A DNA stretch of 64,000 bases from Candidatus Poribacteria bacterium (GTDB lineage Bacteria; Poribacteria; WGA-4E; WGA-3G). The stretch covers positions 3,875,295 through 3,939,294 of the forward strand of contig CBDHGE010000001.1 of NCBI GenBank assembly GCA_965262955.1. The letters are read 5' to 3'. The position numbers and the translations under genes were made by a program. The notes beneath the pieces were generated by a model. It ran no database searches. It saw only the letters and a list, made by a program, of their open reading frames with translations, and had not been told where the DNA came from. Positions 1 through 9,870 of this stretch are shown piece after piece. Position 1 is the stretch's first letter, and each line of letters starts with the position of its first letter.

Positions 1-260
1 AGACAGATTTTACAGAAGAGGATAAGGTTGACATTGCAACCATTCGCCGAAAAGTGCACGAAAACGAGGAACTTCGGCAGGTGATTGAAGGAGATAATAC
101 CGACAGTAATAAATGGTATAAGTTTGAGCAGGTGTTTAATGACATTTTATTGAGTTTCGTCAACGACAAACTTGATCTCTATAATAAATTAACACAACGC
201 GAGGTCAATGCCGACCTCAAGCGTCAACTCTATCAAGCCTATCGCAACCAACCTCTTTAA
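1..260 (+). CDS. 3' end of a CDS entering from the left edge; possibly the C-terminal helical region of a type I restriction enzyme R subunit (HsdR-like)
   Basis: Frame 3 is open from base 3 to TAA 258-260 (TDFTEEDKVDIATIRRKVHENEELRQ...FNDILLSFVNDKLDLYNKLTQREVNADLKRQLYQAY). The ORF track shows only the tail 54..260. The family call rests on remembered resemblance to HsdR C-termini and is unverified. Confidence 0.3.
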   Translation, partial: TDFTEEDKVDIATIRRKVHENEELRQVIEGDNTDSNKWYKFEQVFNDILLSFVNDKLDLYNKLTQREVNADLKRQLYQAYRNQPL

Positions 261-285
261 AATCCGCAAACGACCAATCAAAATT

Positions 286-310
286 GTGGGAGGGGTTTCT
301 AACCCCGATC
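286..310 (+). repeat. Small REP-like hairpin GTGGGAGGGGTTTCTAACCCCGATC
   Basis: Stem GGGGTT/AACCCC with loop TCT. It is about 80% identical to 30993-31016. Confidence 0.7.
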
Positions 311-359
311 TTCCGACATCCTTTCCCCATCCCCATCCACCAAACACCCACTGCTCAAC

Positions 360-450
360 AATCCTGCAAATCCCTAAAATCCTGCAAATCCTGGTTCAGA
401 CGATACCCAATCCTGCAAATCCTCAAAATCCTGCAAATCCTGATTCAGAC
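360..450 (+). repeat. Two tandem 42-nt units (360-401, 409-450): AATCCTGCAAATCCnnAAAATCCTGCAAATCCTGrTTCAGAC
   Basis: Read directly from the sequence. ATCC recurs at exactly 9-nt spacing (361, 370, 379, 388 and 410, 419, 428, 437). Confidence 0.9.
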
Positions 451-470
451 AATTCCCCATCATCCACACC

Positions 471-655
471 CCTCTTAAAATCCGCGAAAATCCGTCAAAT
501 CCGCGTCATCCGTGATTTGCGGCGTACTCGCCTAAATGCAACGTGCATTCAGACAAAAAGCAAATCCGTGCATTCAGACAATTATAAAATCTACCAACCA
601 ACAACTTATAACTTATAACCAACAACCCTCTTAACTGACAACTGATAACTGATCC
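471..655 (+). repeat. Composite intergenic repeat, copy 1 (TAAAATCCGCG iterations + 42-nt double-hairpin module 514-555 + CCAACAACTTATAAC module)
   Basis: Shares module order and sequence with 2957-3066 and 4965-5202. Confidence 0.85.
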
Positions 656-666
656 AATTCTTTCCC

Positions 667-695
667 TTGACCACTTTACCGACATGCGTTATCAT
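667..695 (+). promoter_or_regulatory. Putative sigma70-type promoter for hflKC (TTGACC-17-TATCAT)
   Basis: -35 element at 667-672 and -10 element at 690-695, about 35 nt upstream of ATG 730. Confidence 0.45.
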
Positions 696-729
696 TGCAA
701 ACATTGATTACGATGTCCCTCATTAAAAC

Positions 730-6288: not shown

Positions 6289-6300
6289 ATTTTAAATATA

Positions 6301-6394
6301 CCTTTAAAATCCGCGGAAATCCGCAAAATCCTGCAAATCCTGGTTCAGACAACCAACAACTTATAACTTATAACCAACAACCCTCTTAACTAAC
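6301..6394 (+). repeat. Composite intergenic repeat, copy 4 (one TAAAATCCGCG...TTCAGACA unit + one 44-nt module)
   Basis: It fills the entire gap between the two tandem oxidoreductase genes. Confidence 0.9.
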
Positions 6395-6400
6395 AACCAC

Positions 6401-7480
6401 TCAATCCACCTCCCACTCCTTCAAACCAACCGGTAGCGGATCAGGACGTTCCGTTGTGCTCTCTATCTCAATATGTTCACCCGTTTCAGAGGATTTATCG
6501 AAAGCGCACATCACCTCAAGCACATGATATGCCAACGCGCCATTTGCACGGTGCATGCGTCCCGATTGGATCGCCGAGACCATATCAATGACCCCGATCA
6601 TTCGTGCGTTGTTTGGGAAAGGAATTTCCTCTTCTTCCCAATCACTACCAGGAGGACAGACAGTCACGGGTCCGCCAAATCCATTTGGATCGGGAACCGT
6701 CATTGATCCTGTTTCGCCATAAATTTCAATACACGGGAGACTGTGCCGCCACATATCGAAGCTCATAATCATCGTAATGAGTGCACCGTTCTGAAATTCG
6801 ATTGTACCGGTGAGGTGGGTCGTGATTTTAACGGGGATACGCAAGCCTCGCACGGCTTGACTCGTCGCGACGCGTTCTTCAAATGCCTTCGTAGTAATCG
6901 CTGCAACGCGTTTGACGGGACCGAGGATATTGACGAGAGCAGTCACGTAGTAGGGTCCCATATCCAGCATCGGTCCACCGCCGATGTCATAGTAGAAGGC
7001 GGGATTCGGATGCCAACTTTCGTGACCATGACCACACATAAAGGCTGTCCCAGCAATCGGCCTACCGATTTTTCCAGCGTCCAATGTTTGCCGAGAGGTT
7101 TGGATTCCCGCACCGAGGAAGGTGTCGGGTGCCGATCCGACGCGGAGACCTTTTTCCGATGCACTTTCAATAAGCTGCTTTCCGCTTTCGACATCCACAC
7201 CGAGTGGCTTCTCGCTATAGACGTGTTTACCCGCTTCTAATACTTGCAAACCAACTTCGACGTGTGCTCTCGGAATCGTTAAGTTGACAACCAGTTCGAT
7301 CTCTGGATCAGCAAGCAATTCATCGACGCTACATGCGTGGGAGTTGTATCTTTCAGCTTGTGCCTGCGCCGCTTCCAGCCGAAGGTCAGCACAGGCTTTG
7401 ATTTCTAAAATTTCAGTCTTTCGTGCCCCCTCAAAATAGGCACTACTAATCGTGCCACAACCAATGATCCCAATTTTCAT
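6401..7480 (-). CDS. Gfo/Idh/MocA family NAD(P)-dependent oxidoreductase (tandem copy 2)
   Basis: 359-aa ORF, colinear with 5209..6288 without indels. It has the same MKIGIIGCGTIS and YSEKPL motifs. Confidence 0.9.
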   Translation of the reverse strand: MKIGIIGCGTISSAYFEGARKTEILEIKACADLRLEAAQAQAERYNSHACSVDELLADPEIELVVNLTIPRAHVEVGLQVLEAGKHVYSEKPLGVDVESGKQLIESASEKGLRVGSAPDTFLGAGIQTSRQTLDAGKIGRPIAGTAFMCGHGHESWHPNPAFYYDIGGGPMLDMGPYYVTALVNILGPVKRVAAITTKAFEERVATSQAVRGLRIPVKITTHLTGTIEFQNGALITMIMSFDMWRHSLPCIEIYGETGSMTVPDPNGFGGPVTVCPPGSDWEEEEIPFPNNARMIGVIDMVSAIQSGRMHRANGALAYHVLEVMCAFDKSSETGEHIEIESTTERPDPLPVGLKEWEVD

Positions 7481-7492
7481 ATTTTAAACATA

Positions 7493-7660
7493 CCTATAAA
7501 ATCCGCGTCCTCTGCTAAATCCGCGAAAATCAGCGATTCAGACAACTTATAACCCTATAAAATCCGCGTCATCCGCAAAATCCGCGAAAATCCGTGATTC
7601 AGACAATTATAAATTCCAACAACCAACAACTTATAACTTATAACCCTATAAAATCAGACA
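7493..7660 (+). repeat. Composite intergenic repeat, copy 5 (two about 51-nt units at 7493-7544 and 7555-7605, a partial 44-nt module at 7621-7645, and a collapsed unit CTATAAAATCAGACA at 7646-7660)
   Basis: Read directly from the sequence. It fills the gap between the oxidoreductase start and the thiC stop. Confidence 0.9.
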
Positions 7661-7678
7661 ACATCCTATCTCACCCTA

Positions 7679-9619
7679 TTAGTCAGCCGCTTCAGTATCT
7701 GCGTTCTTGGCATCGGATGCGATATTAAGTTCGTGTCCCTGTTCCTTGAACTCCTCACTCTTCTCCGCCATACCCTCTGCCAATGCTTCCTCAGCGGTGA
7801 TGCCCTTCTCCTCTGCATATTTACGGATGTCTTCCGTGATCTTCATTGAGCAGAAATGCGGACCACACATGGAACAAAAGTGAACAGTTTTCGCCGACTG
7901 ACTCGGAAGGGTTTCGTCGTGATACTCACGGGCAGTCTCCGGATCAAGACTCAAATTAAATTGGTCTTCCCAGCGGAACTCAAAACGCGCTTTAGATAAG
8001 ACATTGTCGCGCTCCTGTGCGCCTGGATGTCCTTTTGCAAGATCCGCCGCATGTGCAGCGATTTTATAGGCGATGACACCTTCCTTCACGTCATCTCTGT
8101 TCGGTAAACCGAGATGTTCCTTCGGCGTCACATAACAGAGCATCGCACAGCCAAACCACCCAATCATCGCTGCACCTATACCACTTGTGATGTGATCATA
8201 GCCGGGCGCGATGTCAGTTGTCAACGGACCCAGCGTGTAAAACGGTGCTTCGTCGCAATGCTTCAGCTGCAGGTCCATGTTCTCCTTGATGAGATGCATC
8301 GGGATATGTCCAGGTCCCTCAATCATAACTTGGCAATCGTGTTCCCAAGCGATCTTGGTAAGTTCACCGAGCGTCTCCAATTCCGCAAACTGTGCTTCAT
8401 CGTTTGCATCAGGGATAGCACCGGGACGTAGTCCATCGCCAAGGGAGAAGGATACATCGTAGGCACGCATAATCTCGCAAATTTCCGAGAAGTGCGTGTA
8501 GAGGAAACTCTCTTGATGATGTGATAGACACCATTTTGCCATGATACTGCCACCACGCGATACAATACCGCAGGAGCGATTCGCTGTCAGCGGAATATAA
8601 GCGAGACGCACACCCGCATGGATGGTAAAGTAATCAACACCTTGTTCGGCTTGCTCGATGAGTGTATCCCGGTATACCTCCCAACTCAGTTCTTCTGCTT
8701 TGCCATTGACCTTTTCCAGGGCTTGATAGATTGGAACTGTACCTATAGGGACAGGTGAGTTGCGGAGAATCCATTCGCGGGTCTCGTGAATGTTTTTACC
8801 AGTGGAGAGGTCCATCACCGTATCAGTTCCCCATTTCGTTGCCCACCGCATCTTTTCGACTTCTTCCTCAATGGAAGATGCGACTGCAGAATTACCGATA
8901 TTCGCGTTAATTTTCACAAGGAAATTTCTACCGATGATCATCGGTTCACTTTCCGGATGATTGATATTTGCTGGAATAATCGCCCGACCACGAGCAACTT
9001 CGTCACGGACAAACTCTGGCGTGATATATTCAGGGATAAACGCGCCGAATGCTTCGCCTGGGTGTTGATGGTTCAATCTGTTTCGCGTTCGGTAATCACC
9101 CTGAATCGCTTCGTATGCCTGCGCTCTACCAAGGTTCTCACGAATCGCAATATATTCCATCTCAGGTGTTACGATCCCACGCTTGGCATACGCCATTTGT
9201 GTAACAGCCTCGCCATTTTTAGCGCGCAGCGGTTTTCGTTTCAACCCTGGGAAGCTTTTTAATCCACCCTTTGCGTCAGTGCGCATACGGGCGTACTGTT
9301 CGTGCCCTTTGGTAAGATAACCGTTATCCTGCGGTTGAATCTCACGTCCATCGTATGCCTCAACGTCACCGCGCCCCAAAATCCAATCTTGCCGTATCGC
9401 TGGAAGTCCTGATTCAACATCACAAGATTGCGAGTCGTCACCCCACGGACCGCTTGTATCGTAAACGCGCAACGGCTGATTCTCCTCAACCGTTCCATCC
9501 GCAACATGCGTCGGGGTGAGTTCGATTTCACGGAAAGGGACGCGAAGATCGGAATGTCCGTTACCAGAGACGTACACTTTTTTGCTATTCGGAAAGAAGC
9601 CTTCAGTTTTGGAACCCAT
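7679..9619 (-). CDS. thiC: Phosphomethylpyrimidine synthase ThiC
   Basis: Long radical-SAM ThiC-like ORF with the C-terminal [11 protein letters not shown] cluster motif. ATG at 9619 is preceded by GGAGG 8 nt upstream, and the track's 9634 start is an upstream TTG. Confidence 0.95.
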
Positions 9620-9830
9620 AAAATTAACCTCCAATTACAACCTCGTCAATCGATTTGCATTTATATTAATCTGTATCTACATCTATTCAAGCTATGATAC
9701 ATGTGACTTCTCACACCACATATAATGTATTGATTTCTTATCCCTTTAACATATTAACACAACTCCTATATTTTCGCAAATATCATGACAACAACATCGG
9801 CATCACTAATCTTGCCCACTCTCTTATTCT

Positions 9831-9870
9831 GAAAATCCTCCTAATCCTGAAAATCCTGGTTCAGAAAACA
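9831..9870 (+). repeat. Degenerate copy of the AATCCTG...GGTTCAGA unit
   Basis: GAAAATCCTCCTAATCCTGAAAATCCTGGTTCAGAAAACA lies in the thiC/glcB divergent region. Confidence 0.7.

Follow-up and report, generated by a model that had tools for sequence, protein, structure and literature searches.

Solo arms of a widely dispersed hairpin element, a nested 32-nt insert and heptamer microsatellites between genes of a poribacterium

IS200/IS605 elements are reportedly single-strand transposons whose orientation is tied to the replication strand, and Nostoc is said to carry small dispersed repeats (SDR) of 21–27 nt. REPINs are short intergenic repeats mobilised by RAYT transposases; they have an inverted-doublet hairpin as replicative form, leave frequent REP singlets read as remnants, form tandem clusters and have a proposed single-stranded DNA mechanism (Bertels and Rainey 2011, PMC3116915). 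MITEs from insertion sequences are likewise small and intergenic, with terminal inverted repeats and more non-coding than gene-carrying copies (PMC10969869). A different kind of repeat, tandem TAACTGA heptamers, is known from Beggiatoaceae, Cyanobacteria and Bacteroidetes (MacGregor 2015, PMC4679880).

We analysed a 64-kb stretch of a Candidatus Poribacteria genome (the window). The original prediction was that six gaps between genes in its first 10 kb are built from three modules in a constant order, always on the + strand: (i) an iterated unit, (ii) a 42-nt element and (iii) a 44-nt element. All six gaps do hold these modules where they had been placed, far beyond chance expectation, and every window copy is on the + strand whatever the direction of the flanking genes. 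The modules are nevertheless different things and not parts of one element, and they are not confined to the first 10 kb, as a diverged arm lies at 47564–47604 (+). Copies are clustered, with 10 in 10 kb and then 1 in 54 kb. The features are listed below, where R1 is a profile of 44 non-poribacterial arms, built without any poribacterial arm.

250–272, +: truncated unit start CTCTTTAAAATCCGCAAAC, overlapping the TAA stop (258–260) of the hsdR gene end (from sequence)
357–402, +: solo arm, CCTG type, four iterations of AATCCTGCA then GGTTCAGACG (R1 E = 1.1e-12); first member of a 49-nt tandem pair (Tandem Repeats Finder)
407–452, +: solo arm, CCTG type, end GATTCAGACAA (R1 E = 9.9e-15; nhmmer E = 5.9e-12)
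468–555, +: solo arm, CCGCG type, CTCTTAAAATCCGCG...CCGTGATT / CAGACA, split by a 32-nt insert; the uninterrupted version of its end is present at 7588–7605
518–549, +: nested 32-nt micro-insert TGCGGCGTACTCGCCTAAATGCAACGTGCATT, core of module (ii), with the two predicted mini-hairpins confirmed on folding
556–580, +: short arm end GCAAATCCGTGCATTCAGACA (repeat family D12, from sequence)
596–655, +: heptamer arrays, AACTTAT x 2.4 and TAACTGA x 3.1; predicted promoter (667–695) about 10 nt further on
2957–3019, +: arm remnant CGCGTCATCCGCCAAATCTGTGATT / CGGACA with micro-insert at 2982–3013
3035–3066, +: AACTTAT x 4.4 array, stopping 3 nt short of the TTG start (3070) of the DUF6785 gene
4964–5047, +: CCGCG-type arm with micro-insert at 5010–5041
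5047–5072, +: short CCTG-type arm AATCCTGCAAATCCTGGTTTAGACAA (R1 E = 5.2e-6)
5069–5208, +: 44-nt x 3.2 array made of heptamers, module (iii) (96% matches), abutting a minus-strand Gfo stop
6299–6352, +: hybrid arm, CCGCG iterations then CCTG iterations, GGTTCAGACAA (R1 E = 2.2e-9)
6349–6400, +: single 44-nt heptamer block, co-duplicated with the Gfo paralog (D1 97%, D3 88% identical)
7493–7605, +: two CCGCG-type solo arms in 61-nt tandem (7493–7544, 7554–7605; period 61, 90% matches); R1 on 7561–7606, E = 2.2e-4
7606–7660, +: heptamer stretch, then the collapsed unit CTATAAAATCAGACA (7646–7660), confirmed as predicted
9805–9866, +: solo arm CTCTTATTCTGAAAATCCTCCTAATCCTGAAAATCCTGGTTCAGAA (R1 E = 8.4e-7 and 4.4e-3; nhmmer E = 7.4e-9), 36 nt upstream of the malate synthase G gene's predicted promoter (9902–9930, promoter scan)
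47564–47604, +: diverged solo arm (R1 E = 5.7e-5) upstream of a ribosomal protein S6-like ORF, then AACTGAA x 5 at 47641–47675

Module (i) proves to be a single arm of an element that has the form of a hairpin or inverted repeat, 5'-TTGTCTGAAYCAGGATT...AATCCTGRTTCAGACAA-3'. Each arm comprises three to five iterations of a 9–10-nt unit, either AATCCTGnn or AATCCGCGn, and has a sharp end at TTCAGACAA: of the positions that follow TTCAGAC, +1 carries A in 92% of copies and +2 in 84%, and from +3 onwards base composition is that of the background. Iterations of the AAAATCCGCG type are over-represented, all on the + strand in the first 10 kb, and because the arm at 6299–6352 mixes both unit types, CCGCG and CCTG units form one family. 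Complete forms (26 inverted pairs) are either a hairpin of 64–180 nt or the same two arms around a nuclease gene. Two complete elements that we folded gave near-perfect hairpins (z = -18 and -12), and two plain window units, free of insert and heptamers, gave none (z = -0.8 and +0.5). A discrete inner boundary (CTCTTATCC or CTCTTAAAATCC) is common to many solo arms of Poribacteria, as would be expected more of a defined unit than of hairpins that decay at random. No target-site duplication was seen and no mobility event was observed.

We found no published description of this family. Its range covers at least six bacterial phyla, with members in Poribacteria, Chloroflexota, Latescibacterota, Bacteroidota, Cyanobacteria, Thiotrichaceae and Desulfobacterota. 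Exact arm 21-mers occur in at least 119 genome loci, 77 of which have at least four iterations plus the end and come from Poribacteria, Caldilineaceae, Dehalococcoidia, Latescibacterota, Bacteroidota, Nostocales, Thioploca and Desulfobulbus. In the window the R1 profile hits eight sites with E <= 0.004, every one of them on the + strand. The repeats are not a CRISPR array, as originally judged, and no Rfam family matched in the window or in 18 loci carrying complete elements.

Outside Poribacteria the arm pair often encloses a gene of about 125 aa for a GxxExxY nuclease (PD-(D/E)XK, Cas4/RecB-like), frequently within type I restriction-modification operons. The protein matches TIGR04256 and PF13366, and the fold predicted for it most resembles those of Cas4 SSO0001, RecE and lambda-exonuclease-like nucleases. 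The gene is arm-flanked in seven Bacteroidota loci that had been selected by their arms; all six genes picked by protein similarity alone were followed by an arm beyond the stop codon, and in two of them the arm upstream was degenerate or absent. Searches of the window and of about 630 kb of poribacterial DNA did not find the gene. The view that module (i) is not the end of an insertion sequence stands in part: in other phyla it is the terminal inverted-repeat arm of a gene-carrying element, but the gene is not a known transposase. We infer that the GxxExxY protein is a candidate mobilising nuclease.

The arm family resembles REPINs in the traits named above other than RAYT, but its arms are 30–45 nt of 9–10-nt iterations where a REP is a GC-rich palindrome of 20 nt headed by GTAG or CGTC; they are near-identical across phyla where REPINs are lineage-specific; and the gene inside the element is the nuclease, whereas REPINs go with a flanking Y1 transposase (PMC3116915). 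It shares the MITE traits too and differs in lacking target-site duplications, in a gene-carrying form without a recognised transposase, and in its many one-armed copies of common orientation (PMC10969869).

Module (ii) is a module (i) arm interrupted by a nested 32-nt insert. Its 42-nt element has three copies in the window (at 514, 2978 and 5006; none expected). We recovered 46 copies of the insert across sponge metagenomes, from 42 metagenome loci and from L120, a locus syntenic with the window, always after GYGRTT and in the same orientation relative to it. They lie in three unrelated host repeats, the arm and two GTAG-headed hairpin repeats; distinct flanks number 16 for host A, about 10 for host B and 10 for host C. 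The SDR of Nostoc reportedly share its size of tens of nucleotides, predicted small hairpins, nesting in repeats and proximity to heptamer arrays; the insert differs in sequence, phylum and length, and in having a defined target in three host repeats. Insertion 3' of a short specific sequence is also said to characterise IS200/IS605.

Module (iii) stands on its own as a slippage-prone microsatellite, a tandem repeat of heptanucleotides (STRR/TAACTGA type) specific to this lineage. Its sequence AACTTATAACTTATAAC occurs nine times, all on the + strand (0.02 expected). The module is not generally linked to module (i). The exact string was absent from 123 loci searched, and related AACCAAC/AACTAAC arrays are present at other poribacterial loci. 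As in the cyanobacterial STRR and TAACTGA repeats, the unit is 7 nt (TAACTGA x 3 is included at 632–653), intergenic and sometimes immediately ahead of a start codon, and their phyletic range overlaps that of the arms; unlike them, AACTTAT and AACCAAC units dominate, a higher-order 44-nt repeat is present, and half of the arrays are antisense behind stop codons (PMC4679880).

Slippage, suspected from the start, and tandem duplication are both visible in the sequence. Tandem Repeats Finder recovered the 9–10-nt iterations, the AACTTAT and TAACTGA arrays, the 44-nt x 3.2 array (5069–5207) and additional units of 49 and 61 nt. The repeats touch coding sequence as described: TAA 258–260 lies inside a unit start, and the arrays ending at 5208 and 6400 abut the stop codons of two minus-strand Gfo/Idh/MocA genes. 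One Gfo gene was duplicated with its flank (5157–5456 against 6349–6648, 88% identical), which explains part of the similarity of gaps 3 and 4. In L120, where the DUF6785 and malate synthase proteins are about 89–90% identical and the HsdR C-terminus is 73% identical to the short fragment at 3–257, the same gaps hold different repeats, indicating fast turnover.

Solo arms of Poribacteria lie on the C-rich strand in 29 cases and on the G-rich strand in 8, or 22 against 4 when each locus is counted once (p = 5e-4) and 25 against 6 in an nhmmer re-run (p = 9e-4), GC skew being a mere proxy for replication direction. The window arms follow this pattern, except the one at 47564, in a positive-skew part. 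Outside Poribacteria the bias is weak (20 against 30 loci, not significant).

What, then, are these repeats? That gaps hold host cis-elements is in our opinion unlikely, though it has the most in its favour among the alternatives. On this view the G-poor heptamer arrays and the arms would be promoter elements placed upstream or would make up 5' leaders without structure, or else the 9–10-nt iterations would be arrays bound by a nucleoid or regulatory protein. Heptamers directly precede the DUF6785 start codon both in the window and in L120 (there of CTGACAA type), suggestive of either a function or a hotspot of insertion; a related array in L139/L155 ends right at an ATG; predicted -35 boxes follow shortly downstream of the arms in gaps 1 and 6; and a translational role has been proposed for TAACTGA repeats before start codons (MacGregor 2015, PMC4679880). 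Against this, orientation across loci is unrelated to that of the neighbouring genes (25 co-oriented tandem, 21 anti-oriented tandem, 13 convergent, 21 divergent), half of the window copies are antisense or behind stop codons, orthologous gaps differ in content where the proteins are about 90% identical, promoter and terminator motifs show no excess, and an identical arm across phyla beside a nuclease gene suits a mobile element better than a host-specific regulator. The strand bias, and the single strand of all window copies, could instead mark polar chromosome signals read relative to replication, like KOPS or Chi; this is quite improbable, as copies are few, only intergenic and clustered, about 20% are in the opposite orientation, many are symmetric hairpins of no polarity, and they are gained and lost between close relatives.

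We give hardly any credence to a merely local duplication history of the 10-kb segment, for all that the block shared by gaps 3 and 4, the tandem pairs at 357–452 and 7493–7605 and the restricted module (iii) string point to it. Arms of both types are spread over many poribacterial loci and several phyla and the insert over 42 other metagenome loci, which already refutes it for modules (i) and (ii), and the AACCAAC/AACTAAC arrays elsewhere in Poribacteria speak against it for heptamers. Equally far-fetched are genes for small RNAs or short peptides: a 9-nt period would keep the frame (NPENPGSD, ILKILVQT, KSCKSWFRQ), 12 solo arms at other loci lie inside long ORFs, and in L082 a GxxExxY ORF ends with the right arm in frame, but the period is mixed (9 and 10 nt), the units have no start or stop context, plain window units lack stable structure, and Rfam gave nothing.

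We therefore favour, with somewhat better than even confidence, the reading that the gaps hold three kinds of non-autonomous selfish DNA accumulated between poribacterial genes (solo arms, insert-bearing arms and a microsatellite), probably not a host control system. The analysis shows that module (i) belongs to the arm family, that this family has hairpin and gene-carrying forms and is spread over loci and phyla, that the insert is nested in three different host repeats, that gap contents change quickly among close relatives, that duplicates have arisen locally in tandem and together with a gene, and that solo arms are biased to the C-rich strand. In module (ii) the 32-nt two-hairpin micro-element has inserted after GYGRTT within an arm. 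The arms may be recognised in trans by a nuclease, the GxxExxY protein being the candidate, and their copying may pass through a single-stranded DNA stage at the replication fork, like that of REPIN/RAYT systems, which would give the strand lock; the solo arms of the window would be immobile leftovers with no host function. IS200/IS605 elements reportedly offer a parallel, by analogy only, in their lack of target duplication, subterminal hairpins and replication-linked orientation; no Y1 transposase was identified here and the element is far smaller. If the arms are mobile, strains would differ in their presence or absence with precise TTGTCTGAA...TTCAGACAA junctions, and if their copying is linked to replication, arm orientation would switch at the poribacterial origin and terminus.

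The first 10 kb of the window hold the C-terminal end of HsdR (3-257), genes for HflK-like and HflC-like proteins, a DUF6785/DUF6784 membrane protein whose best named relatives are from Candidatus Poribacteria and, on the minus strand, two tandem Gfo/Idh/MocA paralogs and ThiC; the last gene encodes malate synthase G. An exact look-up of one window protein found no entry. Six intergenic gaps in this segment (259-655, 2957-3066, 4965-5202, 6301-6394, 7493-7660 and 9831-9870) had been predicted to be built from a unit of 9-10-nt iterations (module (i)), a 42-nt element (module (ii)) and a 44-nt element (module (iii)). 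The strings concerned are indeed present in all six gaps, every one on the + strand. Chance expectation is far exceeded both by AACTTATAACTTATAAC, with nine occurrences in the window vs 0.02 expected, and by the 42-nt element, with the predicted three copies vs 0 expected. Besides the 9-10-nt iterations and the heptamer arrays, Tandem Repeats Finder recovered 3.2 copies of a 44-nt unit in one array and tandem units with lengths of 49 and 61 nt. The resemblance of gaps 3 and 4 partly reflects a Gfo gene duplicated together with its flank. Upstream of thiC (9635-9830, minus strand) no TPP riboswitch or other Rfam family was found even at E <= 1.

We defined an arm as at least three iterations of AATC(C/T)nnnn at 9-10-nt spacing, ending in (A/G)TTCAGACAA, a description that the window copies of module (i) fit. 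A profile built solely from 44 arms of other phyla and run against the window matched eight sites, all on the + strand (E 1e-14 to 4e-3), six of which were confirmed by nhmmer.

Arm sites in the window (coordinates, strand, profile E-value)
357-402, + strand, arm, E 1e-12
407-452, + strand, arm, E 1e-14
5047-5072, + strand, arm, E 5e-6
6315-6352, + strand, arm, E 2e-9
7561-7606, + strand, arm, E 2e-4
9805-9839, + strand, arm, E 4e-3
9842-9865, + strand, arm, E 8e-7
47564-47604, + strand, arm, E 6e-5

The sole minus-strand match was a 16-nt partial one inside a gene (E = 0.006). As all significant copies lie on the + strand and tblastn found no gene for the nuclease GxxExxY (see below) in the window, the window copies are solo arms, without an inverted partner; the profile likewise found no second inverted arm that would complete a hairpin. 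The diverged unit at 47564-47604 lies far beyond the first 10 kb to which the original prediction referred.

A scan with CCTGMAAATCCTGRTTYAGAM over one genome per species matched at least 119 loci, at least 77 of them with four or more iterations plus the arm end. This subset is spread over Poribacteria, Caldilineaceae, Dehalococcoidia, Latescibacterota, many Bacteroidota, Nostocales, Thioploca, Desulfobulbus and Kapaibacterium. Sponge-associated lineages, Poribacteria included, supply the majority of the genome loci sharing the repeats. For 26 arms a reverse-complement copy was found 64-323 nt upstream, so that the pair reads 5'-TGTCTGAAYCAGGATT...AATCCTGRTTCAGACA-3', and the two paired elements tested fold into hairpins that are all but perfect (z = -18 and -12). 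Solo arms make up about two thirds of the total. Conservation ends abruptly after TTCAGACAA, as would be expected of the end of a mobile element. Subfamilies share this end and differ in the iterated unit (AATCCTG, AATCCGCG, AATCACAG or AATTCTG); CCGCG and CCTG iterations are mixed in the unit at 6299-6352. In two Dolichospermum loci (L041 and L067) at least five head-to-tail arms with an 87-nt period are followed by one inverted arm, which suggests array formation in cyanobacteria. The possibility, raised with the original prediction, that the pattern records only the duplication history of this segment fails for the arms: a profile from other phyla matches the window, and solo arms of the CCGCG type are found at many further loci in Poribacteria. 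Arms so dispersed cannot be the product of local duplication.

Resemblance to known repeat classes is partial. A REP, BIME or REPIN unit would be an imperfect palindrome of 20-40 nt headed by GTAG or CGTC. Module (i) does not have this form: the two plain window units tested, free of insert and heptamers, failed to fold (z = -0.8 and +0.5), and the arm end is TGTC/GACA. CRISPR had rightly been dismissed, since the units abut each other or heptamers with no spacer pattern. The small size and terminal inverted repeats of MITEs are found in the 26 pairs from other genomes and are lacking in the window copies. Arm flanks showed no target-site duplication, and no transposase-encoding parent IS was found, long arm pairs enclosing ordinary genes or the GxxExxY gene. 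The Rfam search suggested earlier matched no family: none reached the gathering score in the window, none came within E <= 1 in 1-10200, and 18 loci carrying complete elements were equally without a match. Literature searches with arm 16-mers as exact strings, GxxExxY/PF13366 and Poribacteria repeats returned no description.

Some apparent carriers were discarded. Among 25 viral matches, six were true arms and about 17 (contigs within L166-L190) were a coding motif, YPANPDSEYGWEK, of a NAD-dependent epimerase-like gene that the degenerate arm pattern also matches; this conserved motif will give false positives in any search allowing ...TTCAGAA. An archaeal match (L039) is apparent coding sequence without upstream arm iterations. 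The window contains further repeat families. GTAG-headed, REP-like GC-rich hairpins (e.g. GTAGGAGGGGTGTGTAACCCCG) form a separate family at 286-307, 30993-31014 and 49404-49425 and at about 12275-12298, 12316-12340 and 48402-48426. A palindrome with 22-nt arms, 95% complementary (GGACGCCCGAACTTGTTCGGGA...TCCCGAAGAAGTTCGGGCGTCC, 2835-2889), has a third arm copy 12 kb away (15200-15230), and a dispersed repeat, GTCCCCCTGATAAGGGGCGGGGAAGCC...CATACCGTTGATT (2719-2775), recurs beside arms in the poribacterial loci L127, L120 (about 14124) and L061.

When the ORFs of all arm-selected loci were clustered into families, one family, a protein of about 125 aa, was found tightly between two arms in Bacteroidota. 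It matches TIGR04256 GxxExxY (8e-37) and PF13366 PDDEXK_3. As a control for circularity, GxxExxY genes were picked by protein similarity alone, one from a viral contig and five from public assemblies, Desulfobacterales and Deltaproteobacteria among them. In all six, an arm ending ATTCAGACA (ATTCTGACA in L204/205) lies just 3' of the stop codon, and TGTCTGAATCAGRATT-type sequence is also present upstream in four of the six; L192 has a degenerate arm on that side, and in L201/202 none is evident. The family is very large, with 8,000 or more relatives at E <= 1e-10 in one search, and those listed are 70-80% identical despite belonging to different phyla. A PDB sequence search yielded no solved structure; the nearest structures to a model of moderate confidence (pLDDT 78) are Cas4 SSO0001, RecE and lambda-exonuclease-like nucleases, and PADLOC gave only a weak Cas4b match. 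The gene was not found by tblastn in about 630 kb of poribacterial DNA.

Several GxxExxY elements are located between hsdS, hsdR and hsdM. In L082, L114, L191 and L193-L205 they have repeatedly inserted inside type I restriction-modification genes or at their borders, either between these three genes or beside Eco57I-like genes, and the first gap of the window likewise follows hsdR. Element copies are in tandem in L203, and the number of tandem left-arm copies varies between samples in L193-L200. Between more distant arm pairs (L025, L061, L105 and others) an autonomous transposon was considered and rejected, the ORFs being ordinary or defence genes, including FRG-domain and methylase genes and no transposases. 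A family of FRG-domain/TPR proteins recurs near arms in Poribacteria and Caldilineaceae (L031, L040, L055, L086, L093 and L105); in L105 its gene lies with a restriction enzyme gene fragment between two inverted arms.

Comparison of an uninterrupted arm end, CCGTGATTCAGACA at 7592-7605, with CCGTGATT[TGCGGCGTACTCGCCTAAATGCAACGTGCATT]CAGACA at 510-555 shows that module (ii) consists of an arm end split by a 32-nt insertion. The 42-nt element is real, but not the separate module originally proposed; folding bears out the two mini-hairpins described within it. The insert core was found in 42 metagenome loci, or 46 copies once L120 and the window are added. With about 36 distinct flanks, it occurs in the same orientation and always after GYGRTT in three unrelated host repeats.

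Host repeats of the 32-nt insert (^, insertion point)
Loop of hairpin GTAGTAGYGCRATT^TATYGCRC, 16 distinct flanks
Loop of hairpin GGTAGGTGCGGTT^TCCTAACCGCACC, about 10 distinct flanks
Arm end AATCCGCGAT^TCAGACA, 10 distinct flanks

The same GTAG-headed hairpin types seen in the window host the insert in metagenome loci. A short sequence placed at a defined position in several unrelated repeats is SDR-like, and the insert behaves like the "very small mobile repeated elements" reportedly described in Nostoc by Elhai in 2008. By analogy, it may resemble a minimal IS200/IS605-type substrate, having two subterminal hairpins and a position 3' of a short specific sequence with no duplication.

Module (iii) is a heptamer microsatellite of 7-nt units (AACTTAT, AACCAAC, TAACTGA) partly organized in a 44-nt higher-order repeat, and its head-to-tail, intergenic arrangement is that of a heptamer tandem repeat of the STRR/TAACTGA type. 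Tandem Repeats Finder recorded six separate AACTTAT arrays of 2.4-4.4 copies each, besides TAACTGA x3.1 and AACTGAA x5. The exact module (iii) string was absent from 123 loci; related AACCAAC/AACTAAC arrays occur at other poribacterial loci, one of them ending at an ATG. Further + strand arrays lie in the window at about 12351-12374 (CACTAAT/TGCTAAC), 13336-13374 (CACTGAC/TGCTGAC/CCCCGAC) and 47641-47675 (AACTGAA x5), the last upstream of an ORF resembling ribosomal protein S6. The idea that arms and heptamers generally go together was rejected, strong downstream 7-nt periodicity being found in 1.6% of arms vs 0.5% of random windows. TAACTGA repeats, for which a translational role has been proposed, have a similarly odd phyletic range, covering Beggiatoaceae, Cyanobacteria and Bacteroidetes (MacGregor 2015, PMC4679880).

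Relative to neighbouring genes, solo arms have no preferred orientation across loci; their AATCC..TTCAGACA sense tends to fall on whichever strand is C-rich locally.

Solo arms on the C-rich and G-rich strands
All solo arms: C-rich 69, G-rich 31, p 2e-4
Poribacteria: C-rich 29, G-rich 8, p 8e-4
Poribacteria, one count per locus: C-rich 22, G-rich 4, p 5e-4
Poribacteria, nhmmer re-run: C-rich 25, G-rich 6, p 9e-4

In the same strand test, metagenome loci contributed too few arms to bear on the bias (4 vs 5, and 1 vs 2). In the window, + strand GC skew is negative to about 10-12 kb and positive beyond (1-12300 vs 12300-64000), and of the eight arms detected by the profile seven lie in the negative part, as do all other units of the six gaps. 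Estimated from base counts and skew values, the repeats contribute about 38% of the negative skew; the genes there have negative GC3 skew too. The switch is of origin type, and a replication origin at this point was rejected, there being no DnaA-box cluster. By analogy with IS200/IS605 and REPINs, a replication-coupled single-strand mechanism could generate the strand bias.

The syntenic locus L120 carries HsdR-HflK-HflC-DUF6785-Gfo-Gfo-malate synthase G, with protein identities to the window of about 89-90% for DUF6785 and malate synthase and 73% for the short HsdR fragment. It has an additional RibD_C gene and lacks thiC, which is missing from the same position in another syntenic locus (L121). 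The orthologs from HsdR to malate synthase G, in the same order and orientation, have negative GC3 skew in the window and positive in L120. The L120 gaps hold mostly GTAG-headed hairpins, of the types found in the window, and other heptamers, with two module (i) arms only, so gap contents are replaced much faster than the genes diverge. A role as promoters or terminators was rejected, as the motifs are not in excess (promoters 20 vs 14.6 ± 4.0; terminators 11 vs 9.1 ± 2.9). Predicted -35 boxes follow closely on the arm ends in gaps 1 and 6, and in both the window and L120 the DUF6785 start has a heptamer array in front of it; the repeats may therefore have an incidental or co-opted effect on expression. 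How they are oriented, where they lie and how fast they turn over nevertheless tell against a dedicated host function.

The finding is real, and the repeat family is apparently undescribed, widespread and of a known general kind, resembling MITEs and REPINs; its mechanism of spread is what we infer. It stands out for its iterated arms, sequence conservation across phyla, nested 32-nt micro-insert and strand bias, and for enclosing a PD-(D/E)XK nuclease gene where a transposase would be. GxxExxY has no assigned function, and its placement between conserved inverted-repeat arms offers a testable hypothesis, namely that GxxExxY acts as the nuclease for the mobile element carrying it. We propose tentatively, as a possibility somewhat short of probable, a new cross-phylum class of mobile element with a lone GxxExxY gene, TTCAGACAA-ended 9-nt-repeat ends, strand-tied intergenic derivatives and a GYGRTT-targeting 32-nt insert. 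If so, the only gene of the element would encode a Cas4/RecB-like PD-(D/E)XK nuclease of about 125 aa, and movement, by transposition or homing, would proceed without a canonical transposase. Gene-less hairpin and one-armed derivatives would colonise intergenic DNA, tied to the replication strand, and the nested two-hairpin sequence would be among the smallest mobile DNAs known. The 32-nt insert provides a clean natural system for studying how such small DNA moves. In genome annotation, the repeats should be masked prior to promoter, small-ORF or sRNA calling. In the sponge-symbiont genomes of Poribacteria, arm-only and one-armed derivatives form a visible share of the intergenic DNA and account for part of the local GC skew and for frequent spurious small ORFs (e.g. 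NPENPGSD and KSCKSWFRQ).
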